Positions 4,242 to 28,110 of a DNA stretch of 64,000 nucleotides are shown piece after piece. Under the pieces are notes generated by a model, which was not told where the DNA came from, did not search any database, and worked only from the letters and a program-made list of their open reading frames with translations. A program made the position numbers and the translations under genes. How positions within the stretch are numbered: position 1 is the first letter of the stretch; each line of letters starts with the position of its first letter. The stretch comes from an uncultured Actinomycetes bacterium (GTDB taxonomy: Bacteria > Actinomycetota > Thermoleophilia > UBA2241), in NCBI GenBank assembly GCA_963767005.1, contig CAVYCN010000002.1:288001-352000 (forward strand), in the 5' to 3' direction.

Positions 4242-4304
4242 CACACAGTCGCACTTGACTGTAGCCCGTGTGAGCTTAGTATCGTTTGCGATTCTGTGCG
4301 ATTC
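4242..4304 (+). promoter_or_regulatory. Candidate sigma70-type promoter with flanking operator-like repeats for the 4604-9661 operon
   Basis: TTGACT 4255-4260, 16 nt, TAGTAT 4277-4282; TGCGATTC repeated at 4287 and 4297. Confidence 0.5.
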
Positions 4305-4603: not shown

Positions 4604-5551
4604 GTGAAGGTGCGGCTCTTCTTCGCTACCGACGTACACGGGTCCGAGGTCTGCTGGCGCAAGTTCATCAACTCGGCCAAGCACTACGAAGCCGACGTCC
4701 TCATCCTGGGCGGCGACATGACCGGCAAGGCGATCGTCCCGGTCGTGGCGACCGGCGCCGACAGCTGGCAGTACCACATGCAGGACCTGCAGCACGAGCT
4801 GCACGGCGACGACGAGCTCGCCAAGGGCGAGCGCCTGATCCGCGATCACGGTTACTATCCGGTGCGAGTCACGCACGACCAGGTGCAGGAGTACATGTCG
4901 CAGCCCGAGAAGCTCGACGACCTCTTCGCCCAGGAGCGCCGGCACACCCTCGAGGGCTGGGTCGAGTGGGCCGACGAGCGCCTCGCCGGCAGCGGCATCC
5001 AGTGCATCGTCTGTCCCGGCAACGACGACCATAGCGACATCGACGAGGTCCTCGCCACGTCCAAGGAGATCATCGTGGGCGAGGGCAACGTCCTCGACCT
5101 GTCGGGCGGCTACCAGCTTGTCTCGAGCGGGTGGACCAACCTGACCCCCTGGGACACGCCGCGCGAAGAAGACGAACCGCTTCTCAAGCGGCGCATCGAG
5201 GCGATCATCGCGCAGGCCAGCGCACCGGCCGACAAGCTCGTCCTCGGCCTGCACGCGCCGCCCTTCGACACGCAGCTCGACGTGGCTCCCAAGATCGACT
5301 GGGAGACGCTCACGGTGCAGGGCCAGGACACGGCCCACGTGGGTTCCACGGCGGTGCGCGAGATCATCGACCAGGTGCAGCCGCTGCTGTCGCTGCACGG
5401 CCACATCCACGAAAGCCGCGCCGCCGTGCGCATCGGGCGCACGCTTGCGGTCAACCCCGGCAGCTCCTACGTCGAGGGCACGCTGTCGGGCTGCGTCGTC
5501 GAGCTCGACGGCAAGAGCAAGGTCAAACGCTACCGGCTGACCATGGGATGA
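4604..5551 (+). CDS. Calcineurin-like (Icc-related) metallophosphoesterase, copy 1
   Basis: ATDVHG, GGD, GNDD, HAPP, GHIHE, NPGS; GTG start after GGGAGG. Confidence 0.88.
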   Translation: MKVRLFFATDVHGSEVCWRKFINSAKHYEADVLILGGDMTGKAIVPVVATGADSWQYHMQDLQHELHGDDELAKGERLIRDHGYYPVRVTHDQVQEYMSQPEKLDDLFAQERRHTLEGWVEWADERLAGSGIQCIVCPGNDDHSDIDEVLATSKEIIVGEGNVLDLSGGYQLVSSGWTNLTPWDTPREEDEPLLKRRIEAIIAQASAPADKLVLGLHAPPFDTQLDVAPKIDWETLTVQGQDTAHVGSTAVREIIDQVQPLLSLHGHIHESRAAVRIGRTLAVNPGSSYVEGTLSGCVVELDGKSKVKRYRLTMG

Positions 5552-5628
5552 GCGTGCCCGGGTCTGTCGTTCGGGGGAGGCGGCGTCCGTCGCCGTCCGT
5601 GATGGGTCAGTTCAAGGAGGTTCGCTAG

Positions 5629-7272
5629 ATGGCGACGAACACGCAAGCACCGCGGGCGCCGGAGCAAACGCTCTTCGTCCGCAAGGCGAGCGGTCTGGTC
5701 AAGGGGTGGTCCACGACCGACGGCTTTCGCTACTCGTTCTTCTCGACCAACATCTTCCTGGGAATCTGGGGCATCCTCTACTGTGTCTTCATCCCTGGAG
5801 GCAGCGTGTTCTGGGGTGTCGTCATCACGACGGCGTTCGTTCTGCTCGAAGTGTTGGTGTATTCGGGCCTGATCTCAGCCATGCCGCGTGCCGGCGGCGA
5901 CTATGTCTGGCAATCGCGCGTGTTTCACAGCTCGGTGGGCTTTGTGCTAGGGGCCACGGGCTGGTGGTTCATTCTCTGGCTCTGGATCCCCATCTACGCC
6001 GCCCTGTGCGTGAACTCGTTCATCAACCCGGTCCTCAGGATCGTCGGCGCCGGTGGCACCGCCAACTGGCTGCTCACGCACAACGGCGTCTTCGTGGCCT
6101 CACTTGCCACCATCGCGCTCGCCACGTATCTGGTCGCGATCGGCATGAAGGCCTATGCGACCTTCCAGAAGTGGGCCCTCTGGATCGGCCTGGCCGGCAT
6201 CGCCGTCGCCGGCGTCATCCTGCTCGTCACCTCGAAGGCCGGGTTCATCAGCGCCTTCAACCGTGAGAGCCTCCACCTCTACGGCGCGCACAACGCCTAC
6301 GCCGCGACCATCAAGAACAGCGGCGCCGGCATGCCGTCGTCGATGTTCAGCGGCACGGTCTGGCAGACCTTCAAGCTCATCCCCTTCATGTGCTTCTGGT
6401 TGCTGTGGCCGAACTGGGGCGCCACCCTCTACGGCGAGGTCCGCGGCGCCAAGGACTTCCGCAAGAACATCTACCAGATGGGTGGCGGCCTGCTGTCGGC
6501 GGCCGTCATAGTGATCATCTTTCTGTTCCTCGTGACCAAGACGATGGGCTACAAGTTCTTCATGGCCGCGGCCAACGGCTACATGGGCGTGCTCTACGGC
6601 TACATCAAGTCGACGCCGCACAACGGCGACTACCTCTCGCCGACCGCCATGATCGCCTGGGTCGTCAACAACTCGGCCTTCCAGGTGGTCCTCATCGCCG
6701 CCATCAGCCTGCTCGTGTTCGGCTGGTGGGGCACCGTGTTCCTCTCGTCGACGCGCATGATCTTCGCTTCGGCCTTCGACCGCATCCTGCCCGAAGGCGT
6801 GGCCAAGGTGACGTCGGGCGGCGTGCCGGTCGTGGCGCTTCTGTGCATGGTGATCCCGTCGATCATCGTGTCGGCCTTCTACGCCTACCAGCCTTCGTTC
6901 GTGCAGCTCACCTATGACGCCACGCTGGTCATCGCGGTCATGTTCCTCGGCTCCGGCCTGGCTTTCATGGTCATGCCGTGGCGCACCAAGACCATCTGGG
7001 ACAACTCGGCGCTGCCCAAGCTCAAGGCCCTGGGTGTGCCGATCATGTCGATCGTGGCCGCCGCCTACTCGGCGTTCATGGTGTTCAACCTCTACCTGTG
7101 GATCTACGACCCGACCAACACCTACGGCATCGGCTACAAGAACAAGAACTCGATGATCTTCATGGGCATCCTGTACGTCGCCGCGATCGCCATCTGGGTC
7201 GTGGCCTGGGCCGTCCGCAAGCGCCAGGGCATGGCGCTCGAAGCGGTCGCCAAGGAGATCCCGGTCGAGTAA
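5629..7272 (+). CDS. APC-superfamily amino acid/amine permease, copy 1
   Basis: About 12-13 hydrophobic segments; FVRKASGLV, AMPRAGGDYVWQSR, GEVRG, RMIFA..FDRILP; C-terminus EIPVE; AAGGAGG RBS. Confidence 0.9.
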   Translation: MATNTQAPRAPEQTLFVRKASGLVKGWSTTDGFRYSFFSTNIFLGIWGILYCVFIPGGSVFWGVVITTAFVLLEVLVYSGLISAMPRAGGDYVWQSRVFHSSVGFVLGATGWWFILWLWIPIYAALCVNSFINPVLRIVGAGGTANWLLTHNGVFVASLATIALATYLVAIGMKAYATFQKWALWIGLAGIAVAGVILLVTSKAGFISAFNRESLHLYGAHNAYAATIKNSGAGMPSSMFSGTVWQTFKLIPFMCFWLLWPNWGATLYGEVRGAKDFRKNIYQMGGGLLSAAVIVIIFLFLVTKTMGYKFFMAAANGYMGVLYGYIKSTPHNGDYLSPTAMIAWVVNNSAFQVVLIAAISLLVFGWWGTVFLSSTRMIFASAFDRILPEGVAKVTSGGVPVVALLCMVIPSIIVSAFYAYQPSFVQLTYDATLVIAVMFLGSGLAFMVMPWRTKTIWDNSALPKLKALGVPIMSIVAAAYSAFMVFNLYLWIYDPTNTYGIGYKNKNSMIFMGILYVAAIAIWVVAWAVRKRQGMALEAVAKEIPVE

Positions 7273-7311
7273 CCTGCATCTGTCGTATACGCCAGTCTCG
7301 CGCGGCGTGAC

Positions 7312-7354
7312 GGCGGCGGCGGTCCGGCCCCACAGGGGCCGGACCGCCGCCGCC
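7312..7354. repeat. Perfect 20-bp GC-rich inverted repeat (intra-operon stem-loop, no U-tract)
   Basis: GGCGGCGGCGGTCCGGCCCC-aca-GGGGCCGGACCGCCGCCGCC. Confidence 0.8.
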
Positions 7355-7392
7355 CTGCCACGCCGGGCACCGACCACGAAGGAGGTCGATAC

Positions 7393-8205
7393 ATGGCACA
7401 GCCGTTCATCCTGCCCAAGGACATCCCGATCGAGCGTTACCCCAAGCCCGAGGTCTTCCTCTCCGAGGGCAAGCGCCTGACCGAGGAAGCGCAGAAGCGC
7501 GGCATCATCATGCGCGTCATGGGGCCGCTCGCGCTGCACTACTACTTCCCTGACCAGATCGACCTGTATGCCAAGCTCGAGCGCCTCGGTGAGCGCTACT
7601 TCACCGACATCGACTACGCGGCCTACAGCAAGACCGGCGGCAAGATGCGCGACTTCATGAAGGACATGGGCTACGAGTGCGACCTGCAGACCATGGCGAT
7701 GTCGGGCAAGACGCGGCACATCTACTACGCCGGCCCCGTGCCGATGATCGACGTGTTCTTCGACAAGCTCGACTACTGCCACGAGGTCAACTACAAGGAC
7801 CGTCTCGAGCTCGATCCGTGGAGCGTCTCGCTGTCCGACATCCTGCTGCAGAAGCTGCAGATCGTCGAGATCAACGACAAGGACCTGAAGGACATCGAGT
7901 ATCTGTTCATCACCTGCGAGATCGGCGACGACGACGATCACAAGATCAACCAGAACTACATCGCCAAGCGCTTCGCCGACGACTGGGGCTTCTGGTACAC
8001 CGCGACGCAGCTCAACCTCGATCGCGTCAAGAAGCACTGCGACACGGTGCCGGCCCTCACGCCCGAGATGCGCGAGCGGGTCAAGGCGCAGGCCGACAAG
8101 ATGATCGCGCGCGTCGACGCCGAGCCCAAGACCAAGGCCTGGACCAAGCGCGCCAAGAAGGGCGCCTCGAAGACCTGGTACAACGAGGGCTTCTCCGACT
8201 GGTGA
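7393..8205 (+). CDS. Uncharacterised protein with Pol-beta-type nucleotidyltransferase motifs, copy 1
   Basis: RVMGPLA...TDID (hG-x(n)-DxD), later IDVFFD; KLQIVEINDKDLKD; AAGGAGG RBS; paralogue at 13548-14360. Confidence 0.7.
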   Translation: MAQPFILPKDIPIERYPKPEVFLSEGKRLTEEAQKRGIIMRVMGPLALHYYFPDQIDLYAKLERLGERYFTDIDYAAYSKTGGKMRDFMKDMGYECDLQTMAMSGKTRHIYYAGPVPMIDVFFDKLDYCHEVNYKDRLELDPWSVSLSDILLQKLQIVEINDKDLKDIEYLFITCEIGDDDDHKINQNYIAKRFADDWGFWYTATQLNLDRVKKHCDTVPALTPEMRERVKAQADKMIARVDAEPKTKAWTKRAKKGASKTWYNEGFSDW

Positions 8206-8251
8206 CGCCCGCACGGCAGCGATCCCGAGAAGGAGGAAGGTTCAAGCGTCT

Positions 8252-9661
8252 ATGAAGATCCTCACCCGTATGGGCGACAGCTCCACGGTCGAGATCACCC
8301 GTGACGAGTTGCGCCACGAACTCGAGGAGGGCACCGAGTCGGCCGCCAAGAGGGCCAAGATCCCTCCGCTCACCGAGAACGAGCTCGACTACCTCGAGGA
8401 CATGTTCGCCTGCCCCAGCCGCATCTGGGGCGTCGAGCGTGGTCACGAGGTCGTCATGACGAAGGACGGGTGCGTCAACGCCCTGAACTCGTCGCGCATG
8501 TCGAGCGGCGTGACGGCGCCGGTCAACCGCGAGGTCGGCGTGCGCCTCTTCGAGTCGATGCTCGGCTTCGACTCGATGGAGGTCTCGCACAACGACTACT
8601 CGGTCAAGCCGCAGCGCTTCCTCAAGGCGCTCGAGCAGGTGCACATGGAGCTCCTGCAGGAGACCACGATCTTCCCCCTGCTCTACGGCTTCATGCCCAA
8701 CCTGGGGCTCTACTACCGGCCCGACGGCTCCTTCGAGAACCCCTCCGACCTGCTGCCACTGGGCAAGATCGACGAAGCTCGCAAGACCCAGGAAGCGGCC
8801 CTGCAGGCGTGCATGGACGACTGCATCCTGATGAGCGACTGCATGCTCGAGATGGGCGCCGACGGCATCGACTACGACACCGTGGCATCCACGGGCGACG
8901 CCGAGTTCCTCGCCGTCCTGAAGACGACCGAGCACGTTGCCAACGTCACCGGTCTGCCGGTCGAGATCGGCATGTCGGCCGAGATGGTGCTCGGCTTCCA
9001 CGGCGAGCTCGAATACGACGGCGTGCGGCTCGCCGGCCTGTGGCCGCACCAGCAGCTCCAGCTCTGCGAGAAGGCCGGCACCGCGATCTTCGGGCCGGTC
9101 GTGAACACCAACACCAGAAAGACGGTGCCCTGGAACCTCTCGCGGGCCGTCACCTTCGTGAAGGCCTGCACCGACATCGCCAAGATCCCGGTGCACGCCA
9201 ACGTCGGCATGGGCGTCGGCGGCGTGCCGATGTTCGAGACGCCGGCCGTCGACGCGGTGACCAGGGCCAGCGCGGCCATGGTCGAGATCGGCCGCGCCGA
9301 CGGGTTGTAGGTGGGTACAGGCGATCCAGCCGGCATGCACATGGCGCATCTGCTGGCCTCGTCGATGGGTGGCATCAGGGCCGCTGGAGATCTGGTAGCC
9401 CGTATGGAGCTCAAGAAGATGAGGATCACGGAAGCCAAGCAGTACGTGGCCGACAAGCTGCACGTCAGCCCGCTCGACCTGTCCGACCCGCTCGTCATGC
9501 GCAACCTGCGCGAGGAGCTCGACATCGGCGTCATCACCGGCGTGCCGGGCGTCGCGAAGGGCATGGCGGCGAAGTTCCGCATCGCCGAGCTGCTCGACAT
9601 CGAGATCAACTCGGTGGAGCAGTTCAAGAAGAAGACCGGCGTCACGACCGCCAAGGTCTGA
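8252..9661 (+). CDS. mtbB: Dimethylamine:corrinoid methyltransferase family protein with in-frame TAG (9308-9310), predicted pyrrolysine at residue 353; 469 aa
   Basis: TRMGD N-terminus, [33 protein letters not shown]-[TAG]-[27 protein letters not shown]; similarity to MtbB continues in frame across the TAG. Confidence 0.92.
9313..9401 (+). promoter_or_regulatory. Candidate PYLIS-like stem-loop immediately 3' of the amber codon
   Basis: GGGTACAGG pairs with TCTGGTAGCCC (bulged); TCCAGC 9325-9330 with GCTGGA 9383-9388; GGC/GCC; ATGC/GCAT; local excess of A/T-ending codons. Confidence 0.5.
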
Positions 9662-9670
9662 GAGCGCCGC

Positions 9671-9729
9671 AAAAGCGAAGCGACGGGGCGGGGCGAGCCA
9701 GAGGGCTCGCCCTGTCCCGTCGCCGTTTT
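9671..9729. terminator. Probable bidirectional intrinsic terminator between convergent operons
   Basis: AAAA...GCGACGGGGCGGGGCGAGCC / GGCTCGCCCTGTCCCGTCGC...TTTT. Confidence 0.75.
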
Positions 9730-9732
9730 CGG

Positions 9733-10659
9733 TCAGACCTGGGAGAGCCAGTCCCTGAAGGCGGGCTGGCCGGCGTTGCGCCAGAAACGCTCGATGCGGT
9801 TCATGCCGTAGGCGAAGAAATCGAAGTCGAGCGCCGAGACCTTGTGCTGGATCATCGCCCAGATGCTCCACCAGTGATCGGCGACCAGCTTGTAGAGCAT
9901 CATGCGGCCGTAGCGCTGCTCGTCCCAGCCGCCGCAGTAGGTGGTCAGGACGGTGCGCTCCTCGGCGTCGCTCAGCGGGTGCTCGACGCAGAAGTCGCCG
10001 AGGTCGAAGTACGGGTCGGCCATGCCGCCGTACTCCCAGTCGATCACCCACAGCCTGCCGTCCCGCGCGACGATGAAGTTCTCGGACAGCAGGTCGCAGT
10101 GGCAAGCGACGGGGGCCGGCTGGTCGCGCTCCATGGCGAGCTCGATGGCGTCGCCCAGCGGGAACATGTGCTCGAGCGACGCCGGCAGCACGGCGCCGAC
10201 CTCGTGGGCCATCGCCGTGTACTCGCGGATCATGTCGAAGACCTGGATCTCGTTCGAGAACACGGCGCCGTCGTGATAGGTGCGCACGGCCTGCACGATC
10301 TTGTCGAGATGGTCGGGGTGGCCGGCGATCGTGTCGGGGTGCAGGGTGACGCCGTCGATGAACGGCACCACCGTGCAGGGCCCCGGCTCGATGCGGTGCA
10401 GCAACGGCGGCGTCACGCCGGTCGCGGCGGCGGCCACGTGGTTGGCGAGCTCGCGCTCACGGTCGATGAAGACATCGGTGCCCTGGCCGGGGATGCGCAG
10501 CACGTAGCGCGCGGCCGGCTCCGCGCCCTCGCCGGCGACGCTCACCAGGAAGTTCTGGTTGGTGATGCCGCCGCCGAGCACCTCCCAGCTCACCTGCCGG
10601 CCCTGCCAGTCGGCGATCTGGGCGATGACCTCGTCGGGTGTCATGGTGGCGGTCGTCAT
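9733..10659 (-). CDS. Choline/ethanolamine kinase family protein, copy 1
   Basis: LGGGITN, VLRIPG, IDRERE, CHCDLLSENF, IDWEYGGM.DPYFDLG. Confidence 0.88.
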   Translation of the reverse strand: MTTATMTPDEVIAQIADWQGRQVSWEVLGGGITNQNFLVSVAGEGAEPAARYVLRIPGQGTDVFIDRERELANHVAAAATGVTPPLLHRIEPGPCTVVPFIDGVTLHPDTIAGHPDHLDKIVQAVRTYHDGAVFSNEIQVFDMIREYTAMAHEVGAVLPASLEHMFPLGDAIELAMERDQPAPVACHCDLLSENFIVARDGRLWVIDWEYGGMADPYFDLGDFCVEHPLSDAEERTVLTTYCGGWDEQRYGRMMLYKLVADHWWSIWAMIQHKVSALDFDFFAYGMNRIERFWRNAGQPAFRDWLSQV

Positions 10660-10833
10660 GCTTCGTCGTCCCCTCGCTTGAGATCGTGGTGCGGCCGGAC
10701 CGACGCCGCTCGCAGCGGAAAGGAGCGATGGGACCGGCCTGTGCGGGTGGCGGGGAAGAGGCCGCGGGCGCCGGGCCGTGCAGCCCGGCGCCCGCGGCGC
10801 CCTTGCGAGCCCGCGGCTGATGCTAGAGCCGCC

Positions 10834-12468
10834 TCACTCGGGCGGCACCTCGAGGAACGCGTACGAGATGTCGACGCCCCTGCCGCGCTGGTAGTAACGG
10901 GTGATCCAGAAGACGACGAGGCAGGCGACGAACACGCCCGCGACGATGACGTAGCCGACGGTGTTCTTGAGACCGTAGGCGGGCTTGATCAGGAACAGCG
11001 CGGAAGCGATGACGCCGAGAACGAAGCCGATCAGTCCGAGCACGGTGACCCACGGGATACCGAAGATCTTGTACTGGGCGCCGGGCGCCGCGTCGAAGAG
11101 CGCCTTCGCGCGATACGGGAGCAGGGCGGCCGCGAGTGCGCTGACCACGAAGACGTAGCCTGCGGCGAACGTGACGCCCAGCGTCAGCTTCGCCCAGGAG
11201 CTGATCATGGTGTAGCCGAACAGCCAGACGACCCCGCAGATGAAGTAGATGAGGTGGGCGTTCAGCGGGGAGCGGAAGCGGGGGCTGATCCGCGAGAGCC
11301 AGGCCGGCAGCGTGCGGTCCAGCGACATGCCGACCATGATACGGGTCACCCCGATGTAGCAGTTGCAGGTGATCTGCAGCGAGGCGAGCATGAAGCAGAC
11401 GCCGGTGACGATCACGAGGATCGGGTTCGGCGAGATCACGGTCGCGTACGTGCCCGGGAAGGGGAAGACGCTGCCGATGCCGTTGCCCGACTTGCTCACC
11501 CCGCCGAACCACGAAGCCGACACCGCGTGGAAGAAGCCGGTGCCGACGGCCTTCTGCTCGGCGGCCGCGATGAGCGCGAGGACGCAGCCCAGCGCGATCA
11601 GGGAGCCCACGATGATGAAGATCTGGTTCTTGAACACGCGTGCGCCCTTGATCTCACCACCCTGCTCGACGCTGTAGGTCGCCCACTGCGTGCTGGTCCA
11701 GGCGATCGGGGCGGCCAGGAGGGTCGCTCCCAGGGCGAACTTCGCATGCAGGTTGAAGCCGGCGGCTGAGACGTCGTGCTGGATCCAGTTGTAGTAGTTC
11801 GGGTTCTTGTCGACGAAGGCCGAGTAGTGGTTCATCGCGACCGCGAAGCTCGACGGCGACGTACGCAGGAACTGGATGAGCACGATCGCGATGAGGATCC
11901 CGGTGCCGGCGAACATGAAGTACTGCAGGCGGACGTAGTTCTTGAAGCCGGTCACCAGCAGCATGGCCATGGCCGCCATTCCGATGATCGAGACGACGAT
12001 GAGCCCCTCCTTCGACTGCGCCCAGACGGCGGCGCTGACGAGGTGCTGGTTCTGGTAGTGGACGCCCAGGCCCATCAGCATGGGCGAGAGGCCGAGCGTG
12101 CAGAACAGCCAGCCGGCCAGCGACAGCCACTGCAGGATCCAGATGACGAAGCCGCTCATCACGATCGGAAAGCCGACCGCGCCTCCGAGGATACGGCTCT
12201 GGAAGACGTAGTCACCGCCGGAGCGCGGCATCGCCGTGGCCATCCAGCAGTAAGCCAGCGCGATCGGCAGCTCGAGCAGCGTGGCAAACAGGCACGCCAG
12301 CCACACCGAGACGCCGGGGAACGCATACGGCGCCTCGGCGATGATCCAGGGGAAGATGACCCCCATGGTCAGGAAGTTGTACATGAACGCAGACCAGGGC
12401 GACATGACCCTGGACAGCCCCGAAGCCTTGCGACTGAAGACTTCGGGTTTGGCGACGGTTGCTTCCAT
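10834..12468 (-). CDS. APC-superfamily amino acid/amine permease, copy 2
   Basis: FSRKASGL, AMPRSGGDYVFQSR, GEIKG, many TM segments; C-terminus EVPPE. Confidence 0.9.
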   Translation of the reverse strand: MEATVAKPEVFSRKASGLSRVMSPWSAFMYNFLTMGVIFPWIIAEAPYAFPGVSVWLACLFATLLELPIALAYCWMATAMPRSGGDYVFQSRILGGAVGFPIVMSGFVIWILQWLSLAGWLFCTLGLSPMLMGLGVHYQNQHLVSAAVWAQSKEGLIVVSIIGMAAMAMLLVTGFKNYVRLQYFMFAGTGILIAIVLIQFLRTSPSSFAVAMNHYSAFVDKNPNYYNWIQHDVSAAGFNLHAKFALGATLLAAPIAWTSTQWATYSVEQGGEIKGARVFKNQIFIIVGSLIALGCVLALIAAAEQKAVGTGFFHAVSASWFGGVSKSGNGIGSVFPFPGTYATVISPNPILVIVTGVCFMLASLQITCNCYIGVTRIMVGMSLDRTLPAWLSRISPRFRSPLNAHLIYFICGVVWLFGYTMISSWAKLTLGVTFAAGYVFVVSALAAALLPYRAKALFDAAPGAQYKIFGIPWVTVLGLIGFVLGVIASALFLIKPAYGLKNTVGYVIVAGVFVACLVVFWITRYYQRGRGVDISYAFLEVPPE

Positions 12469-12532
12469 GGTTACCCCCAGATCAGTTTGCGGACCGAAAC
12501 GCCGGCCGGTTCACGGCCGTGAGTGAGCAGAC

Positions 12533-13531
12533 TCAGCCTGACGTCATCTGATAGCCCACCACCTTGCCGGGCTCGAGCGTGATGATGCAGCCCCGGATGA
12601 TGCCCTCGCCGTACTCGCTGCCGGGGTTGATGACGGTCGTGCGACCGAGGTTCACAAGGCCGCGCGACTCGTGGATGTGTCCCGTAAGGGCGAGCAGGGG
12701 CGCGTGCTTCTCGATGATCTTGCGCACCGCCGTGCTGCCGGCCGGCGCCGACTGCGGCACGCCGGCGATGACGATGGGCGAGGGCGGGTCGGTCGACCAG
12801 TCGAGCTTGGGGCAGTCGTCGAGCGTGCAGTCGTAGGGCGGCACGTGCATGTTGAAGATGGCGCTCGTGAAGTCGTCGATGCCGTCGACCGCCTGCTCGA
12901 GCAGCGTGTAGAGGGACTCCTCATCGGTCTCGCGCGGCGTCGCCCAGGGCGTCGGGTTGCTGTGGCCGCAGTTGGCCATGGGGTAGAAGTCGTCGAACAG
13001 CACGACCCGGCCCTCGCAGTTGACTACATGCTCGCTCTGCACCTCGTCGAAGACGGTGAGCACGTCGGGCGGGTCGTCGTTGCCGCCGGTCACGTACCAC
13101 TTGATCGGCGTGTCGGCGAGGCGCTCGTCGGCCAGCGCGATCCAGCGCTCGATGCGCTCGCGCGCCAGGCGATGGAACGTGCCGTCGACCTGTGACTGGT
13201 CCGCCTGCATGGCGTGGAGCTCGTCCTCGGCCATCGTCACGTGGTAGAAGCCGAGCGTCTCGATGCGCTCCTTGATGGCGGCCAGGGCGTCGTCGCCCTC
13301 GATGTGCTCGGTCGTGCCCTGGAGCGTCACGCGGTAGTGGCTGTCGTGCTCATGGACGATGGGCACGAGGAACTTGCCCATGATGTCGCCGCCCATGATG
13401 ATGTGGTCGACCTTGTAGAACTTGGCGCAGTTCACGAACTTGCGGAACGTGCGCTCCGAGCCGTGCACGTCGGTCGCATAGAACAGGCGCACGCGTTTGG
13501 CCCCGCCGTCCTTCTTCTTGAACAGTCCCAT
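12533..13531 (-). CDS. Calcineurin-like (Icc-related) metallophosphoesterase, copy 2
   Basis: ATDVHGS, GGD, GNDD, HVPP, GHIHE, NPGSEY; clear paralogue of 4604-5551. Confidence 0.88.
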   Translation of the reverse strand: MGLFKKKDGGAKRVRLFYATDVHGSERTFRKFVNCAKFYKVDHIIMGGDIMGKFLVPIVHEHDSHYRVTLQGTTEHIEGDDALAAIKERIETLGFYHVTMAEDELHAMQADQSQVDGTFHRLARERIERWIALADERLADTPIKWYVTGGNDDPPDVLTVFDEVQSEHVVNCEGRVVLFDDFYPMANCGHSNPTPWATPRETDEESLYTLLEQAVDGIDDFTSAIFNMHVPPYDCTLDDCPKLDWSTDPPSPIVIAGVPQSAPAGSTAVRKIIEKHAPLLALTGHIHESRGLVNLGRTTVINPGSEYGEGIIRGCIITLEPGKVVGYQMTSG

Positions 13532-13547
13532 GGCGTGACCCGTCCTC

Positions 13548-14360
13548 TCAGTCGATCTCGTTGTACCACTTGACCTTGTCGCCGACCTTGGAGCGCAGGC
13601 GCCAGCGGGTGCCCTTGGGCTCGTCGTCCATCGCCTTGAGCAGCTCGCCGACGCGCTGCGCCACGACGGCGCGGTCTTCGTCGGACAGGTCGACGTGCGG
13701 CAGGTAGTCGCGTACCTTGCCGAGGTTCATCGAGCTCGTGCGCCACAGGCCCCACTCGCCGGCGCACAGGGTGGCGATCCGGGCCGCGTTTATGTGATCG
13801 GCGTCGTCGCGCGCGATCTCGTGCTCGCGCAGCAGCATGATGGTGTCGATGATGTCCTTCTCGTTGATCTTGACGATCTGCATCTTCTCCAGGACGAGCT
13901 CGGCCAGCGGGATGGTGGGGCTGTCGACGGCGAGCCGGTCCTTCCAGGGGATGGGGTGGCAGAAGTCGAGCCGGTCCATGAAGACGTCGACGTGGATGTG
14001 CTTGACCGGGTGGTTGAAGATCAGGCGCCCGGCCTCGGCGTGGAAGCTGTTGATCTCGACGTCCTCGTCGTAGCCGAGCGCGATGAAGAGGTCGCGGATC
14101 GGCTTTGACTGCTTGCCGTAGCCGGCGAAGTCGATGTCGGTGTACACGCGGTTGAGTTTGGCCTGGATCCAGCCGAACTGCGGGCAGTGATGGTGGAAGG
14201 CAAGGGCGCCGATCACGCGCAGCGCCACGCCGGCCTGCTGACCCGCCTGGACGACCCGCAGGGCCTCGTCCTCGAACACCCGCGCGAGGTCGGCGTCGGG
14301 CTGGCCGACGCCGACCTGCGCGCCGATCTCGCCGGCGGGGTGGGTGTCCTGATCGCTCAT
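13548..14360 (-). CDS. Uncharacterised protein with Pol-beta-type nucleotidyltransferase motifs, copy 2
   Basis: RVIGALA...TDIDF, HVDVFMD, KMQIVKINEKDIID; ATG after GGAGAG. Confidence 0.7.
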   Translation of the reverse strand: MSDQDTHPAGEIGAQVGVGQPDADLARVFEDEALRVVQAGQQAGVALRVIGALAFHHHCPQFGWIQAKLNRVYTDIDFAGYGKQSKPIRDLFIALGYDEDVEINSFHAEAGRLIFNHPVKHIHVDVFMDRLDFCHPIPWKDRLAVDSPTIPLAELVLEKMQIVKINEKDIIDTIMLLREHEIARDDADHINAARIATLCAGEWGLWRTSSMNLGKVRDYLPHVDLSDEDRAVVAQRVGELLKAMDDEPKGTRWRLRSKVGDKVKWYNEID

Positions 14361-14418: not shown

Positions 14419-15201
14419 CTAGACCACCTCGCAGCGCGGTCCGGCACGCTCGACGCGCTTGCAGACGTCGGCCGCGAGGCCGCCGTCGGTGACGACCACA
14501 TCGACCTGGTCGAGCGGGCAGATGACGACCGGGCCGACGCGCTCGAACTTGGTGTGGTCGGCGAGGACCACTACCTCGCCGCGCGTGCGGCGCACCATGG
14601 CGAGCTCGAGCCCGGCGGCGGCGATGCTCACGGTCGTGAGGCCGGCGCGCACGTCGATGCAGTCGGCGCCCAGGAAGGCCTTGTCGGCGTTGAAGTGCTG
14701 GATCATGTCGAGCGGCCAGGAGCCCTCGACCGACTCGAGCTGCGGCCGGTAGAGGCCGCCCAGAAAGACGAGCTCGACGCGCAGGCCGCGGGCCTCGGAG
14801 ACGGCCGCGAGGTTCGGCGTGACGACCCTGGCCTCGAGGCGCGGGTCGATGTGGCGCATGATCTGCGCGACCGTGCTGCCGGAGCCGAAGAAGACGGTGT
14901 CGCGCGGTTCGATCATGGCGGCCGCCGCGCGGGCGATGCCGTCCTTCTCGGCCGCCTGGGGATCGGGGCCGCCGTCGAAGCCGGCTTCGACGGCCGGCCG
15001 GCGGCGCACGGCGCCACCGTGGGTGCGGGCGAGCACGCCCTCCTGCTCGAGCAGCATGAGGTCGCGCCGGATGGTGATCTCGGAGACGCCGAGGTCTTCG
15101 GACAGGGTGGTGACGCGCACGGCCGGCCGACCCCGCAGCGCGGCCACGATGCGCGCCCGCCGTTCCGCGGGCAGCATCTCGCGTACGTCGGACGCGGACA
15201 C
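14419..15201 (-). CDS. DeoR/GlpR-family transcriptional regulator 1
   Basis: LGVSEITIRRDL...RTHGGA HTH; EK..IA..AA; GST; LADHTKF. Confidence 0.92.
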   Translation of the reverse strand: MSASDVREMLPAERRARIVAALRGRPAVRVTTLSEDLGVSEITIRRDLMLLEQEGVLARTHGGAVRRRPAVEAGFDGGPDPQAAEKDGIARAAAAMIEPRDTVFFGSGSTVAQIMRHIDPRLEARVVTPNLAAVSEARGLRVELVFLGGLYRPQLESVEGSWPLDMIQHFNADKAFLGADCIDVRAGLTTVSIAAAGLELAMVRRTRGEVVVLADHTKFERVGPVVICPLDQVDVVVTDGGLAADVCKRVERAGPRCEVV

Positions 15202-15226: not shown

Positions 15227-15291
15227 CGATCATGATCGGACATGACCGTTCAAAGGTGATCAGATTCTAGGATCGGTTTCGGCGATGTCAA
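15227..15291 (-). promoter_or_regulatory. Sigma70-type promoter for the DeoR1 operon with downstream palindrome
   Basis: Minus strand TTGACA (15291-15286)-N16-TAGAAT (15269-15264); perfect palindrome CGATCATGATCG 15227-15238. Confidence 0.7.
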
Positions 15292-15952: not shown

Positions 15953-16879
15953 TCAGCAGCCGCCGAGCCAGGTGGGGTAGTCGGGGTCGGCTACGCCGCG
16001 CTCGGCGCGACCTACGCGCTCCATGCCCCACTCCATGTAGTCGAAGTCGATCTGCGAGACAGTGTGTTGGATCATCGCCCAGACGGCCCACCAGATCGCC
16101 GAGACGATCTTGTAGAGCATCATGCGACCGAAGTAGCGCTCGTCGAAGCTGCCGCAGTAGGCGTCGATGACGAGGCGCTCTTCCTCGCGTGAGTAGGGAT
16201 GCTCCATTACGTGGTCGCCAAGGTCGAAGTACGGATCGGTCATGCCACCGTACTCCCAGTCGATGATCCACATCTTGCCGTCGGCGTCGATGATGAAGTT
16301 CTCGGACAGCAGGTCGTTGTGGCAGGCCACGTCGGGCACAGGTCGCGCGGCCGTGGCCTTCTCGATGTCGTCCATCACCTCGAGCATCTCCGCGAGGCGG
16401 TCTGGCATGGGGGCGTTGATGTCCTTTGCCACCTTGGTGTAACGGCGCAGCATGTCGAAGATCTCGATCTTATTGCCGAAAGTGGCCTGCTGATGGAAGA
16501 CCTTCACCGTCTCGACCGCCTGGCGGATGTTCTCGGGGTGCCCGGCCATGGTGTCGGGGTGCATGACCTCGCCGTCGACGAAGTCGATGGCCATCGCCTT
16601 CTCAGGCTCGATGACGTGGGCGACCGGCGGCGCCACGCCGACTCGGGCCGCCTCGATCATGCATTCGCGCTCGACGTCGCGGTCGATGAACATGTCGGTG
16701 CCGGCGCCGGGCACCCGCAGCACGTACTTGCCGCCGCCGGGATTGCCCCAGCCGCCGTTCACCCAGACGATGTAGTTGTGGTTGGTGATGCCGCCGCCGA
16801 GCTCCTCCCAGCGCACGTCCTTGCCTCTCCAGTCGGCGATGCGCGCGATGGCCTCGTCCGGCGTCAGCCCGTGTCCCAT
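15953..16879 (-). CDS. Choline/ethanolamine kinase family protein, copy 2
   Basis: LGGGITNHN, VLRVPG, CHNDLLSENF, IDWEYGGMTDPYFDLG; paralogue of 9733-10659. Confidence 0.88.
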   Translation of the reverse strand: MGHGLTPDEAIARIADWRGKDVRWEELGGGITNHNYIVWVNGGWGNPGGGKYVLRVPGAGTDMFIDRDVERECMIEAARVGVAPPVAHVIEPEKAMAIDFVDGEVMHPDTMAGHPENIRQAVETVKVFHQQATFGNKIEIFDMLRRYTKVAKDINAPMPDRLAEMLEVMDDIEKATAARPVPDVACHNDLLSENFIIDADGKMWIIDWEYGGMTDPYFDLGDHVMEHPYSREEERLVIDAYCGSFDERYFGRMMLYKIVSAIWWAVWAMIQHTVSQIDFDYMEWGMERVGRAERGVADPDYPTWLGGC

Positions 16880-21618: not shown

Positions 21619-21662
21619 TTGACACCCGCACACCGGTGCTATGATGTGTGCGACTGTGTGCG
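21619..21662 (+). promoter_or_regulatory. Candidate promoter and operator for the DeoR2-kinase-methyltransferase operon
   Basis: TTGACA 21619-21624; extended -10 TGcTATGAT (TATGAT 21640-21645, spacer only 15 nt); TGTGTGCG repeated at 21645 and 21655. Confidence 0.55.
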
Positions 21663-21716
21663 GAAACGGCGAAGGGCCACCGCTGCCGAACGTCGCCGCC
21701 GAGACGGGGGGAGCCG

Positions 21717-22508
21717 ATGTCGCTGCCAGGCCCTGAGGTACGAGAGATGATCCCGGCGCAACGCCGCGTGCGTATCGTGGAGTTCCTGCGCGACCAGCGC
21801 GCCGTGCGCGTGTCGTCGCTGTCCGAAGAGCTCGGCGTGTCGGAGATGACGATCCGCCGCGACCTCGAGCGCCTCGAGGCCGAGGGGCTGCTCACGCGCA
21901 CGCACGGGGGCGCCATCATCAAGCGGCACATGGCCGAGGAGCCCCAGTACCTCGACAACGTTGCGACGCACGCCGAGGAGAAGGAGCGCATCGCGCGCGC
22001 GGCCGCCGCGCTGATCGAGCCCGGCGAGACCGTCTTCCTGAGCTCTGGCACCACGGCGGCGCGCGTCCTGCGCCACGTGAGCCCTGAGCTCGAGGCGCGC
22101 GTCGTCACCCACAACGCCGGCGCGCTGACCGAGTGCCACGGCCTGCGGCTCGAGCTGATCCTTCTCGGCGGCCGGTTCCGCGCGCGCTCCAACGTGCTCG
22201 ACGGGCCCGCCGCCGTGGAGTTCGTGAGCCGTTTCCATGCCGCCCGCATGCTGATCGGCGTCGACGGGTTCGACCTGCGTGAGGGCCTGACGACGCCGTC
22301 GCTCGGCATCGCCGGCATCGAGCGTGCCATGATCGCCCACACCCGCGGCGAGGTCGTCGTGCTGGCCGACCGCAGCAAGATCGGCGTGGTGGCCGACGTC
22401 GTCATCTGTGGCCTCGACCAGGCCGACGTGGTCATCTGCGACGACGGCGTCGACGACGGCGTGCGCGAGGACATGCGCCGCCTGGGCCTGCGCTGCATGG
22501 TCGTATGA
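21717..22508 (+). CDS. DeoR/GlpR-family transcriptional regulator 2
   Basis: LGVSEMTIRRDL...RTHGGA; SGTT; LADRSKIG; paralogue of 14419-15201. Confidence 0.92.
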   Translation: MSLPGPEVREMIPAQRRVRIVEFLRDQRAVRVSSLSEELGVSEMTIRRDLERLEAEGLLTRTHGGAIIKRHMAEEPQYLDNVATHAEEKERIARAAAALIEPGETVFLSSGTTAARVLRHVSPELEARVVTHNAGALTECHGLRLELILLGGRFRARSNVLDGPAAVEFVSRFHAARMLIGVDGFDLREGLTTPSLGIAGIERAMIAHTRGEVVVLADRSKIGVVADVVICGLDQADVVICDDGVDDGVREDMRRLGLRCMVV

Positions 22509-22574: not shown

Positions 22575-23825
22575 TTGGACCCGGACAGGGCAAACGAGCT
22601 GCTCGAGGTGGCCGAGAGGCTGGCGGCCGACGCCGCCGCGCTGCGCGCCGAGCTCGACTACGAGTTCAAGACCGGTCAGCTCGCGGCGGTGGTCGCCGAC
22701 GACTACGACCTCGGCGAGGTCGTCGGCGTCGACCAGATCTTCGGCGGCTACTGCAACCTGAGCTTCGCCGTGCGTACGCGCACGGCCGCGGGCGAGCAGC
22801 GCTACTTCGTGCGCAAGTACGGTCGCTCGATCACCGAACGCGAGATCCGCTTCGAGCACGCGCTCGTGCACCACATCGACGGGCAGGGCCTGCATCTGGC
22901 CGCGCGCGTGTACACCAACAAGGCCGGTGGCACCTACGTCGTGCGCGACGAGCTCCACGGTGGTGAGCGCGAGACCAGGTACTTCGCGGTCTACGAGATG
23001 CTCGGCGGGCTCGACAAGTACACCTGGGTGAAGAACCGCCTGACCGACGTCGAGTTCGACAGCGCTGCTCGCGTCCTCGCCCAGTTCCACTATCTGGCCC
23101 ACGACTTCGACCCCGGTGACCTGGGCCGCAACCAGCCGCCGATCATGCAGCTCCTGCGCGACCTGCGCCCGGCCTTTGCGCGCTACGCCGAGCAGGCGAA
23201 GGCCGGTGGGAGCATCGTCGACGACTACTACCTGCACTGGCTACCCACCATCGACGAGGCCCTGCGCCGCGGCGCCGAACAGGAGGCCGACCTGCAGGGG
23301 ATGCCCTACATCCCGGTGCACTGCGACTATCACCCCGGCAACCTCAAGTGGGTCGACGGCGACGTGCCGGCCGGCGCCTCGCGTTGCTGCGGCCTCTTCG
23401 ACTTCGACTGGTCCAAGCTCGACTATCGCATCTTCGACGTGGCCGAGGGCATCGTGTACTTCTGCAGCTCCTGGGAGGGGCACGACAGCGGCGAGCTGTG
23501 GCTCGACAAGGCGGCGATCTTCCTGCGCGCCTACCAGGACGAGGCCGCGCGCTTCGACACGCCCGGGCCGCTGTCGGCAGCCGAGCTCGCGGCTCTGCCG
23601 CGCATGATCGCGAGCGCCAACCTGTACGTGCTCAACTGGGACGTGAGCGCCTACTACGAGGCCGAGGACGAGTTAAACGACGACGAGTACCTCATGTACC
23701 TCAAGCATCAGGTCATGTTGATGGAGTTCATCGAGGCTCACCTCGACGAGCTGTCGCGCCTGGCGGAGCCGCAGGAGGCAGCGGCGCGACCGTCGGGCCT
23801 CGACCACGAGAAGGAGAGGGGCTGA
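22575..23825 (+). CDS. APH/choline-kinase-fold phosphotransferase (type II homoserine kinase-like)
   Basis: LAQFH, VHCDYHPGN, GLFDFDW, FDVA; TTG start after GGAGG. Confidence 0.8.
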   Translation: MDPDRANELLEVAERLAADAAALRAELDYEFKTGQLAAVVADDYDLGEVVGVDQIFGGYCNLSFAVRTRTAAGEQRYFVRKYGRSITEREIRFEHALVHHIDGQGLHLAARVYTNKAGGTYVVRDELHGGERETRYFAVYEMLGGLDKYTWVKNRLTDVEFDSAARVLAQFHYLAHDFDPGDLGRNQPPIMQLLRDLRPAFARYAEQAKAGGSIVDDYYLHWLPTIDEALRRGAEQEADLQGMPYIPVHCDYHPGNLKWVDGDVPAGASRCCGLFDFDWSKLDYRIFDVAEGIVYFCSSWEGHDSGELWLDKAAIFLRAYQDEAARFDTPGPLSAAELAALPRMIASANLYVLNWDVSAYYEAEDELNDDEYLMYLKHQVMLMEFIEAHLDELSRLAEPQEAAARPSGLDHEKERG

Positions 23826-23830
23826 TCCGC

Positions 23831-25282
23831 ATGGGATTCGCCGAGCTGCTCACGCCGCAGGAGGTCCGCCGCACGCACGAGGCGTCGCTCGAGGTACTCG
23901 AGGCCGTCGGCATCCTGGCGCACAACCCGCGGGCCCGCGACGTCTTCGCCAGGCACGGCTGCACGGTCGACGCCGAGACCGGCGTCGTGCGGCTCCCGGC
24001 CGACGTGGTCGAGCGCTACCGCGCGCTCGCGCCGTCGAGCTTCACGTTCCGGGGCCGCGACCCGAAGTTCGACCGCACCATCCCCGACGACGGCCCGATC
24101 GTCGTCACGGGCTCGTCGGCGCCCAACGTCGTCGACCCGGCGAGCGGCGTGGAACGGCGCGCGACGTCGGCCGACATCGCCACGATCGCGCACCTGATCA
24201 ACGAGCTGCCGGGCTTCGACGTCTTCTCGATCTCGACCCTGGCCGACGACGCGCCAGAGGGCCAGTTCAGCCTGAGCCGCTTCTACCCGGCCCTCAAGAA
24301 CTGTCTCAAGCCGGTGCGCAGCAACACGCCCAACATGGAGGACCTGCGTCAGGTGGTCGAGCTCGGCGAGATCATCGCCGGCGGCCCCGACGCGTACCGC
24401 GAGCGACCCGTCATCAACCACCACTACTGCCCGATGGTGAGCCCGCTCACCATGGACGTCGAGTCGACCGAGGCCGTCCTGTGGCTGACCGAGCGCGGCC
24501 TGCCGGTGTACACGACGGTCGTACCCAACGCCGGCCTGACCGCGCCGATGACCATGATGGGCTGCCTTGTCGTGGGCAACGCCGAGTTCCTCGCCATCAC
24601 CGTGTTCCAGCAGATGGTGAAAGAGGCGACGCCGGTCATCTACGCCAGCCTGCCGACCGTGGCCGACATGCGCACCGGCGCCTACGCGCCGGGCGCGATC
24701 GAGACCGGCATGCTGCTCGCCGCCCAGGCCCAGCTCGCGCGCTTCTACGACGTGCCGGCGGGCGGCTACATCGGGCTCACCAACGCCCACAGCAACGACG
24801 CCCAGGCGGGCTTCGAGACCGGCATGAACACCGTCCTCGGCGTGGCGGCCGGCGCGACCCTGCTTAACATGGGCGGTCTGTTCAGCTCGCTCATGGCGTT
24901 CGACTTCGCCAAGTGCGTGATCGACAACGAGATCGCCCTCATGGACAAGCGCGTCTGGCGCGGCCTCGAGTTCAGCGAGGAGAACCTGGCGCTCGCCGAG
25001 ATCGCGGCCGTCGGACCGGGCGGCAGCTACATGGGCCGCCAGCACACCAAGCAGCGCATGAAGACCACCGCCGTCCTGCCGCGCCTGGCCAACCGCGAGA
25101 TGCGGGCCCAGTGGGAGGACGCCGGGCGTCCCGACATCCACAGCCGGGCGCTGGCCGAGGCGCGCCGCATCCTGGCCGAGCCCAACCCGGCCGTGTGGGA
25201 CGCGTCGCTCGACGCGGCCGTCCGGGCGCGGTTCCCGGGCATCGTCGCCGGCGACGCCGTGCCGCTCGAGGCGCGGGTGTAG
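23831..25282 (+). CDS. MttB-superfamily methyltransferase, non-pyrrolysine
   Basis: HEASLEVLEAVG, SPL, TAPMT, DMRTG, DAQAGFE, VIDNEI, VGPGGSY; Leu (CTC 24776-24778) at the Pyl-equivalent position. Confidence 0.9.
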   Translation: MGFAELLTPQEVRRTHEASLEVLEAVGILAHNPRARDVFARHGCTVDAETGVVRLPADVVERYRALAPSSFTFRGRDPKFDRTIPDDGPIVVTGSSAPNVVDPASGVERRATSADIATIAHLINELPGFDVFSISTLADDAPEGQFSLSRFYPALKNCLKPVRSNTPNMEDLRQVVELGEIIAGGPDAYRERPVINHHYCPMVSPLTMDVESTEAVLWLTERGLPVYTTVVPNAGLTAPMTMMGCLVVGNAEFLAITVFQQMVKEATPVIYASLPTVADMRTGAYAPGAIETGMLLAAQAQLARFYDVPAGGYIGLTNAHSNDAQAGFETGMNTVLGVAAGATLLNMGGLFSSLMAFDFAKCVIDNEIALMDKRVWRGLEFSEENLALAEIAAVGPGGSYMGRQHTKQRMKTTAVLPRLANREMRAQWEDAGRPDIHSRALAEARRILAEPNPAVWDASLDAAVRARFPGIVAGDAVPLEARV

Positions 25283-25372
25283 CGAGCGCGCGGCGAGGAG
25301 CCTGCGAAGAGAAGCGACCGGCCGCGCACGAAGGCGGCCTGACCGGTCACCGTCAAGACCAAGGAGTAGCGC

Positions 25373-26020
25373 ATGGCGCACGAGGAGCTGTTCGAGCAGT
25401 TGAAGCACGCGATCATCGACCAGGACGAGGACGCCGTCCTCGCGGCCGTCGACAAGGGCCTGGCCGCCGGCGTCGAGCCGAAGACCCTGATCGACCAGGG
25501 CCTGCTGCCCGGCCTCAACGTCATCGGCGAGCAGTTCGAGGCCGAAGACATCTTCCTGCCCGAGCTGATGCAGGCGGCTCTGGCGTTCCAGGCGGCCATG
25601 GCCGTGCTCGAGCCGAAGATCAAGGAGAGCGGCAGCGAAGGTCCGAAGAAGGGCAAGATCGTGCTCGGCACGGTCAAGGGCGACCTGCATTCCATCGGCA
25701 AGAACATCCTCAAGCTGCTCTTCGAGACCTCGGGCTACGAGGTGTGGGACCTCGGCATCGACGTCGACCTGTTCAAGTTCGTCGACAAGGCCAAGGAGGT
25801 CGACGCCGACGTCATCGCCATGTCGGCCCTGCTCACCACCACCCTGGTCGGCCAGCGCGATGTGATCGAGGCGCTCAAGGGTCAGGGGACGCGCGAGAAG
25901 TACAAGGTCATCATCGGCGGCGGCGCTACCACCCAGGCGTGGGCCGACCAGATCGAGGCCGACGGCTGGGCCGGCACAGCCTACGAGGCCGTGAACCTCG
26001 TGGGCAGGCTGGTCTCGTGA
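25373..26020 (+). CDS. Methyltransferase cognate corrinoid (B12-binding) protein
   Basis: FLPEL, GTVKGDLHSIGKN (DxHxxG), SALLTTT, IIGGG. Confidence 0.94.
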   Translation: MAHEELFEQLKHAIIDQDEDAVLAAVDKGLAAGVEPKTLIDQGLLPGLNVIGEQFEAEDIFLPELMQAALAFQAAMAVLEPKIKESGSEGPKKGKIVLGTVKGDLHSIGKNILKLLFETSGYEVWDLGIDVDLFKFVDKAKEVDADVIAMSALLTTTLVGQRDVIEALKGQGTREKYKVIIGGGATTQAWADQIEADGWAGTAYEAVNLVGRLVS

Positions 26021-26108
26021 GGCAGTCCGCCGGCGGACGCGGCACGACGGTCACGGCCGTCGCGCGGCGCCGCCATGCTCCGTCGAACCCGACTTGCAGG
26101 AGAACGCC

Positions 26109-27491: not shown

Positions 27492-27561
27492 CGGAAGGGC
27501 GGCGGCCGGGCGGCGACGAGCGACATGGTCGTGGCTCGGGCCGGCGTGACGTCGCGGGGCG

Positions 27562-27609
27562 GACGGGACCGGCGCGGCGAGCCGTATGGCTCGCCGCGCC
27601 GGTCCCGTC
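27562..27609. terminator. Perfect 22-bp stem-loop after the methyltransferase operon
   Basis: GACGGGACCGGCGCGGCGAGCC-gtat-GGCTCGCCGCGCCGGTCCCGTC; no U-tract. Confidence 0.6.
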
Positions 27610-27769
27610 TCGCCAGCGGGCCCTGCGAGCACTAGACTAGGCAGGCGACGCGGCGCGCAGGCGCGGCGTCACAGCGGCGGCCGTGGGGCGTACGCCCCAA
27701 CGCCGGCACGCAAGCCACAGGAGAGCAACCAGCAGAAGACGGCCGGCAAGTGACGAGGTCTCCCGGTCG

Positions 27770-27935
27770 AAGGTCGCGCGAGAGACCGTCCGCTCGTCGG
27801 ACGGTCGCCGAAGGGGCAAGGCGGCGGCGCCGCCGAAACTCTCAGGCCAACGGAGCGCGGCCGGACGGGTCCCTGAACGCGCCCGCGAAGGGCGACCACG
27901 TGGACAGGGTGAAGCCAGACGCTTCGCCTCTGTCC
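27770..27935 (+). ncRNA. Glycine riboswitch (one clear aptamer plus a degenerate second domain)
   Basis: GAGAGACC...GGTCGCCGAAGGGGCAA...AAACTCTCAGGC; upstream of gcvT-glyA fusion. Confidence 0.85.
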
Positions 27936-28110
27936 ATTCTTCGTTTCGGGGGTGGACGGGGCGCACCGGGTCGCAGGCGACTGGGTGGTCGGGCGGCGGC
28001 GGACGGGTAAGGAGGAGGCCGATGACAGCCGCAGCCTCGAAGACGAAGATGCCGGTGGCGCGCACGGTGGCGCGCCCGAGGCGACGCTCGGCGCAGGGGG
28101 GGTGGGCACG

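Follow-up and report, generated by a model that had tools for sequence, protein, structure and literature searches.

The 64,000-nucleotide stretch analysed here (the window), positions 288,001 to 352,000 of contig CAVYCN010000002.1 from an uncultured Actinomycetes bacterium of the Thermoleophilia lineage, contains two copies of a module that encodes a nucleotidyltransferase (NTase), a metallophosphoesterase (MPE) and an APC-superfamily permease. Copy 1 lies on the + strand (4604–9661) in the order MPE1-APC1-NT1-mtbB. MPE1 (4604–5551) is a calcineurin-like esterase with a GNDD motif and a terminal Gly; APC1 (5629–7272) carries N-terminal FVRKASGL and C-terminal EIPVE; and NT1 (7393–8205) is a Pol-beta-fold, ANT(2'')/MenT/LnuA-like enzyme with G44, D72, D74, D120, H130, K154 and K163-D164-x-x-D167. 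Copy 2 occupies the - strand (15201–9733) in the order DeoR-NT2-MPE2-APC2-kinase, with NT2 at 13548–14360, MPE2 at 12533–13531 (ligands D21, H23, D49, N151, H229, H285 and H287, GNDD, an invariant G52-K53, a terminal Gly and an inserted beta/helical subdomain at about residues 55–137) and APC2 at 10834–12468 (FSRKASGL and EVPPE). Read directly, the NTase motifs are MGPLA..FTDIDY..DVFFD in NT1 and IGALA..YTDIDF..DVFMD in NT2. Identity between the copies is 36% for the NTases (E 7e-53), 40% for the MPEs (E 1e-79) and 24% for the permeases (E 3e-31), values that mark them as old paralogues, and the nearest homologues are from Thermoleophilia. The original prediction had placed these open reading frames (ORFs) exactly, in two diverged trios of differing order on opposite strands, and the motifs that it quoted (TDID and DVF.D in the NTases, GNDD in the esterases, F.RKASGL and E[IV]P[VP]E in the permeases) are all present. 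A third permease in the window (18636–16990) indeed lacks both terminal motifs and belongs to another family (TIGR00907, 402 bits).

Homologues of the three genes are found together far beyond this genome. Within the DNA fetched for 80 GTDB loci seeded by NT1, the esterase was present in 76 and the permease in 72 (counted by eye), and the loci missing either one were short or cut. So as not to depend on seeded loci, identical genome samples were searched with three profiles; in the first sample only 3–6 candidates were scored per genome. Among 401 Actinomycetota genomes, 54 had the NTase, 50 the MPE and 52 the permease; all three occurred in 50 (including the unpublished genome G120, whose esterase is one row of MPE alignment A2) and none in 345. 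Of the four NTase-only genomes, two gave weak matches (E about 1e-3), one had a broken gene and one was fragmented, and the two permease-only genomes were 57% and 88% complete. In 121 Chloroflexota genomes, all three were found in 18, none in 100 and a partial set in 3. By these counts, the association is not due to chance. Metagenome loci seeded with an NTase from a cluster that includes a Thorarchaeota protein contained the esterase in 55 and the permease in 60 of 80 cases, or 31 and 34 of the 35 loci with at least 3 kb on each side. When 72,556 plasmids were searched, the permease and esterase profiles matched the same two records, from the cultured haloarchaeon Halobellus limi (ALDH-MPE-NT, permease convergent) and Thermomicrobium roseum (permease-MPE-nitrilase). 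The trio thus occurs in archaea as well; gene order and strand vary freely, and the NTase family has 1,334 representatives at 50% identity (E ≤ 1e-10). The module is shown to be one inherited unit, old and obligate-looking: its genes are co-inherited and co-located, the two enzymes have the expected folds with their catalytic residues in place, and the permease termini are conserved. The neighbourhood survey and profile counts favour the earlier suggestion that it is also one functional unit.

Profile searches of the own genome (G000; L-numbers denote individual loci) counted 10 family permeases (at least 390 bits), six MPEs and nine NTase homologues, the remaining 15 APC matches scoring at most 60 bits and lacking both terminal motifs. 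All six MPEs adjoin a family permease, and for four of them an NTase lies within the same gene cluster; the pairs without one adjoin amidinotransferase/deiminase, carbamoyltransferase, carbamate kinase and methyltransferase genes. The NT2-MPE2 pair (12535–14360) is repeated at G000:C3:96911-98736 (L085) with 99.56% identity over 1826 bases, a span that runs almost exactly from NTase start to MPE stop and precedes another permease paralogue (73% DNA identity, 700-base gap), with phage terminase and DNA methylase genes close by; it represents either a recent cassette duplication or conversion, or an assembly artefact. At L082:9260-11272 (G000:C2 about 614260-616272), a Fic-domain protein and an NTase homologue share a single 671-aa open frame, either through fusion of two nucleotidyl-transfer domains or through loss of a stop codon. 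In L081:8890-15493 a lone NTase homologue stands ahead of a 1040-aa fusion of APC permease, GAF and histidine kinase, then a probable response regulator and a family permease that keeps both motifs but has no esterase. In L089:8280-9911 (G000:C11) a family permease without either terminal motif, and without NTase or MPE, lies 3' of genes for a GAF-histidine kinase and a response regulator. Elsewhere, 11 metagenome loci (L164, L165, L167, L168, L178, L179, L186-L188, L202 and L240) contain a gene for a small membrane protein of about 160–235 aa, absent from the own genome, between permease and esterase; L124, L125 and L163 have a different 164-aa ORF next to the permease; and in L131, L133 and L134 two esterase paralogues flank one permease and an aldehyde dehydrogenase gene, with a single NTase.

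The nucleotidyltransferase fold that had been predicted for the NT genes is borne out by structure search and motif alignment, which place them in the ANT(2'')/MenT/LnuA branch of the Pol-beta superfamily with catalytic residues intact. In an alignment of 136 members, D72, D74 and D/E120 are found in all and G44 in 133; position 45 is G, A or S in 126, but P in NT1. No cyclase is among the top five fold matches. Pfam NTP_transf_5 (PF14907) is matched by 41 of the 136 at E ≤ 0.001, the matches seen all lying under the gathering score (16.5–28.1 versus 31.2 bits) and covering the N-terminal part only; NT1 scores 16.5 bits and one paralogue 28.1, both below the cut-off, and NT2 gives no match. 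The family is 10–15% identical to ANT(2'')-Ia (AadB) and LnuA, which, according to the available portion of PMC2794190, nucleotidylate hydroxyls of small amino-sugar drugs. Unlike these enzymes, the module NTase possesses about 80 extra C-terminal residues that include an invariant W-x-x-R-x-x-x-G-x-x-x-x-W, has fixed esterase and permease partners, and has no resistance context. The phospho-acceptor positions given for MenT in the available part of PMC11375011 are T39/D41 and S78. In contrast to the MenT/AbiEii (DUF1814) toxins, the module NTases lack a Ser/Thr acceptor two residues before DxD (F in 87, L in 40, Y in 29 and I in 21 of 208) and stand in a catabolic context.

The assignment of the esterases as metallophosphoesterases likewise holds, given their calcineurin-like fold and seven metal ligands (DxH, GD, GN, H, HxH), which are invariant in the family. 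The MPE2 model (pLDDT 93.4) includes the inserted subdomain, and its closest solved relatives are aq_1956 and TT1561 (Metallophos_3, PF14582; Foldseek E 2e-11 and 3e-9), known only as structures titled uncharacterised and 14–15% identical to the MPE. Module MPEs share with these proteins, and with MJ0936 and YfcE, the lack of a His after GN, but differ from them in the inserted subdomain, a strictly terminal Gly or Ala and a fixed permease linkage. All 171 MPEs have [GA]NDD, with Asp replacing the His, and GD-x-x-G-K stands in place of the usual GD-x-x-D-R; by way of lambda phosphatase, we take this Lys to occupy the position of the Arg. As far as the accessible text of PMC2190708 goes, 2',3'-cyclic phosphodiesterase and Mn-dependent monoesterase activity both require that His and Arg, whereas acyclic diesters do not, the His-less MJ0936 and YfcE are diesterases, and Ni-dependent monoesterase activity requires only the seven ligands. 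Because the GNH His is lacking, the MPE is likeliest an acyclic phosphodiesterase, and an acyclic phosphodiester is the type of bond that an O-nucleotidyltransferase makes. Judged by their residues, then, the NTase and MPE are two intact enzymes of opposite chemistry. All 171 MPE members end in Gly or Ala, without extension (window 12533–12535 and the 5549–5551 region), and the free C-terminus probably matters; near-invariant hydroxyl residues are Y39, Y96, T194, S266, T298, S305 and Y307.

Both module permeases belong to the APC superfamily (AA_permease_2, 53.6 and 40.5 bits; cut-off 27), and the best solved relatives of their profile lie in the cationic amino acid transporter (CAT/GkApcT) branch (E 4e-11 to 1e-7). 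The loop motifs P-R-x-G-G-x-Y and R...D-R-x-x-P are common to both groups, while the module permeases have divergent TM1/TM6 motifs and their own N-terminal R-x-x-[S/T]-G-L and C-terminal E-x-P-x-E/D. TM1 and TM6 bind solute in solved APC carriers, and in the family alignment these helices vary strongly. N-terminal R-x-x-[S/T]-G is present in 137 of 138 permeases, Ser and Thr exchanging with nothing else used, and an acidic C-tail of the E-x-P-x-[E/D] type in 136, so that both of the cytoplasmic termini are fixed although the specificity varies. The neighbours at 40 wider loci (90 selected neighbours were Pfam-scanned; some cluster labels were read from sequence or carried over) include glycine-oxidase/aminomethyltransferase fusions, GMC oxidoreductase, sulfatases, agmatinase/arginase, hydantoinase, class III aminotransferases, FGGY and PfkB kinases and Zn-type dehydrogenases. 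Since both enzymes remain constant across loci whose permeases differ in their binding helices and whose catabolic neighbours range from methylamines to sugars, the module is not amine-specific, and the solute carried appears to differ by locus. Neighbouring genes suggest that copy 1 probably handles methylamines and copy 2 probably a choline/ethanolamine-type compound.

The esterase is the closer partner of the permease. At 49 loci that were not NT-seeded or came from the own genome, the esterase was directly adjacent to the permease in 38 and the NTase in 22. Tree distances across 34 trios gave rho values of 0.56 for MPE-APC, 0.34 for MPE-NT and 0.04 for NT-APC, and in a smaller set of 29 they were 0.53, 0.15 and 0.32, respectively; only the MPE-APC co-divergence is stable across both sets, and shared ancestry inflates all three correlations. 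Co-folding of APC2 with MPE2 scored 0.41 versus 0.00 for the best control, with at least 40% of contacts agreeing between runs and a partner pLDDT of at least 81. Of 157 solved complexes, 116 reach the co-folding mark, as do 2 of 215 mismatches; only 18 of these solved complexes, but both mismatches, lie at 0.60 or below. Sequence-only searches revealed no solved complex of a permease-esterase kind. Binding of the MPE to the permease is thus weakly predicted.

We tentatively propose, at just under an even chance, that reversible O-nucleotidylation, likely on a Ser/Thr of the permease, is carried out by a phosphodiesterase docked on the permease together with an NTase that acts partly in trans. 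The shared substrate of the two enzymes would be something constant rather than the solute, and the fixed Ser/Thr of the R-x-x-[S/T]-G motif, Ser21 in APC1 (5689–5691, + strand) and Ser16 in APC2 (12421–12423, - strand), is the best candidate. By analogy with its closest structural relatives, the NTase would move a nucleoside monophosphate (NMP) from a nucleoside triphosphate (NTP) onto this hydroxyl, the most probable acceptor; the His-less esterase, docked at the cytoplasmic side of the permease, would cleave the resulting acyclic phosphodiester; and the tag would turn transport on or off, or belong to the transport cycle. A single NTase may serve several permease-esterase pairs in trans, and the loose linkage and spare copies of the NTase would be explained if an invariant motif demands no partner-specific fit. 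Of the three mechanisms offered originally, reversible NMPylation fits best, activation of the substrate is weakened by the constancy of the enzymes against varying binding helices and catabolic neighbours, and a cyclic second messenger fits worst, being disfavoured by the lack of the His that the available text of PMC2190708 ties to cyclic phosphodiesterase activity, and by the absence of cyclases from the top five NTase folds.

Several observations weigh against modification of the permease. The closest NTase relatives modify small molecules (ANT(2''), LnuA) or tRNA (MenT), not membrane proteins, and NTase distances failed to track the permease in the larger set (Mantel P 0.27) and tracked the MPE instead, if less so in the smaller one, so that the NTase may instead act on the esterase or on a small molecule. 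The APC2-MPE2 co-fold was weak and gave no interface, the conserved Ser/Thr may be structural (a helix cap or hydrogen bond), and the MPE may be a monoesterase, given that an invariant Lys takes the place of the Arg and that the accessible part of PMC2190708 offers a Ni-dependent precedent. The profiles go back to NT-seeded loci, and closely related genomes do not count as independent. No NTase homologue was found on the T. roseum plasmid that bears the APC-MPE pair. In the own genome, two MPE-permease pairs lack an adjacent NTase, five NTase homologues stand outside any trio, and four family permeases lack an MPE, with both motifs kept in three of these and lost in the one on C11.

A more far-reaching version of permease nucleotidylation is possible, though we think it doubtful: an entire family of APC permeases, bacterial and archaeal, would be run by a dedicated covalent nucleotide cycle on its own tail, with the NTase charging the invariant Ser/Thr with NMP and the permease-docked phosphodiesterase discharging it. 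In its boldest form, the cycle would be an add-on to a secondary carrier that spends NTP to energise or ratchet it, and the permease would almost never occur without both enzymes because the cycle is coupled to transport itself.

The alternative that survives best, although unlikely, is that the NTase attaches a nucleotide, by O- or N-linkage, to the imported compound or to a shared intermediate so as to trap or buffer it, and that the esterase on the permease frees it again, which would amount to tag-and-untag catabolism with nucleotides. This agrees with the small-drug targets described for ANT(2'') and LnuA in the available portion of PMC2794190 and with the kinases that adjoin many module copies, and MPE-permease co-divergence could mirror a common solute specificity; however, the catalytic residues of both enzymes hardly change across loci whose pathways and permease binding helices are very different, and the NTase does not show the co-divergence with the permease expected of a solute-specific enzyme. 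The position of the MPE as hub of the tree correlations, its near-invariant hydroxyls and its terminal Gly/Ala would also suit an esterase that is the regulatory subunit of the permease and itself the target or partner of the NTase (NT to MPE to permease), comparable to a PII relay and an eraser fused in one. We consider this rather improbable, as the hydroxyls may merely form the active site and a self-erasing enzyme requires an additional assumption. Still lower in our estimation is a small nucleotide messenger made by the NTase and sensed and destroyed by the permease-bound esterase, which would gate uptake in the way that osmolyte importers are gated by c-di-AMP. In its favour, NT genes are placed less strictly, sometimes several genes off or absent, and CBS-domain genes lie beside the NTase in 2 of 40 wider loci (L144, L145); it is the cyclic forms of such a messenger that the His-less esterase and the NTase fold matches speak against. 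A tRNA-modifying toxin of the MenT/AbiEii kind, with the esterase as antidote and the permease tie incidental, is very hard to reconcile with the almost obligatory tie to a single permease family and to catabolic operons, with the absence of any recognised AbiEi/MenA-type antitoxin gene from the Pfam-scanned subset of neighbours, with the absence of the acceptor defined in the accessible part of PMC11375011, or with the five NTase copies outside the trio.

Outside the module core, each copy has a distinct amine-type neighbour, as had been predicted. Copy 1 ends in an mtbB-family dimethylamine methyltransferase gene (8252–9661, + strand) that is split by an in-frame TAG at 9308–9310, which we infer to be a pyrrolysine codon; PylS is encoded in the same genome, above cut-off. 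Parts of this pyrrolysine system lie at window 8252–9661 and at G000:C3:236183-236905. Genome-wide there are eight MtbB-family genes, most with N- and C-terminal halves one codon apart, and an MtmB at L084 is likewise split; a literature search found no paper on a pyrrolysine system in such a Thermoleophilia-like bacterium. Copy 2 begins with a DeoR-family regulator gene (14419–15201, - strand), doubled in the island at 21648–22508 with about 70% DNA identity, and ends in a choline/ethanolamine-kinase-family gene (9733–10659, - strand), doubled at 15953–16879 with 52% identity. A methylamine/choline demethylation cluster follows at 22575–30798 (APH-type kinase, MttB, corrinoid protein, MtmB homologue and GcvT-SHMT fusion), its MtmB homologue being an open 465-aa frame without an internal stop. 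The convergent operons are separated by a terminator-like 20-bp hairpin (9680–9723). Promoter-like sites, both consensus matches only, lie 5' of copy 1 (sigma-70-like, 9/12, 4255–4282, + strand) and 5' of the DeoR gene (TTGACA-16-TAGAAT, 11/12, 15264–15291, - strand), two being found versus 1.3 expected in shuffles, and Shine-Dalgarno-like sequences, read by eye, precede five of the six module ORFs, that of APC2 being weak.

We know of no transporter family that needs its own nucleotidyltransferase and phosphodiesterase. The trio is real, widespread and undescribed in the literature searched, and the mechanism proposed for it is a likely one that awaits proof; targeted searches, which miss subscription journals and supplements, found no description of it, and its parts are new members of known superfamilies. 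It is found in about one in eight sampled Actinomycetota, one in seven Chloroflexota and also archaea, often in multiple copies, and is open to testing because it is present in the cultured Halobellus limi. Nucleotide tagging at a transporter would be an undescribed way of controlling uptake, and the chemistry is undescribed even if one of the alternatives holds. If the tag is on the permease, the module would represent a new post-translational switch or energy-coupling mode for the APC superfamily and provide first functions for three large uncharacterised protein families. In the Lic operon, as set out in the available part of PMC2794190, a choline kinase (LicA), a transporter (LicB) and a Pol-beta-fold transferase likewise stand together, the operon also including the cytidylyltransferase LicC and the transferase LicD. 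None of the 136 NTase members matches the LicD Pfam, and no LicC was found among the scanned neighbours, the genome at large not having been searched for it. Nucleotidylyl switches are known from GlnD (UTase/UR)-GlnK/PII-AmtB and from GlnE-glutamine synthetase. In the module as proposed, too, a Pol-beta NTase and a metal-dependent eraser would govern nitrogen-related uptake through reversible NMP transfer to a hydroxyl. The following differences set the module apart from the GlnD-PII-AmtB system without weakening the analogy: the annotated loci contain no recognised PII gene; writer and eraser in the module are separate genes, the writer being a stand-alone 270-aa NTase of the ANT/MenT type rather than one fused to an HD eraser and ACT domains as in GlnD; the eraser is calcineurin-like rather than an HD or second NTase domain; and the transporter is an APC permease rather than an Amt channel.

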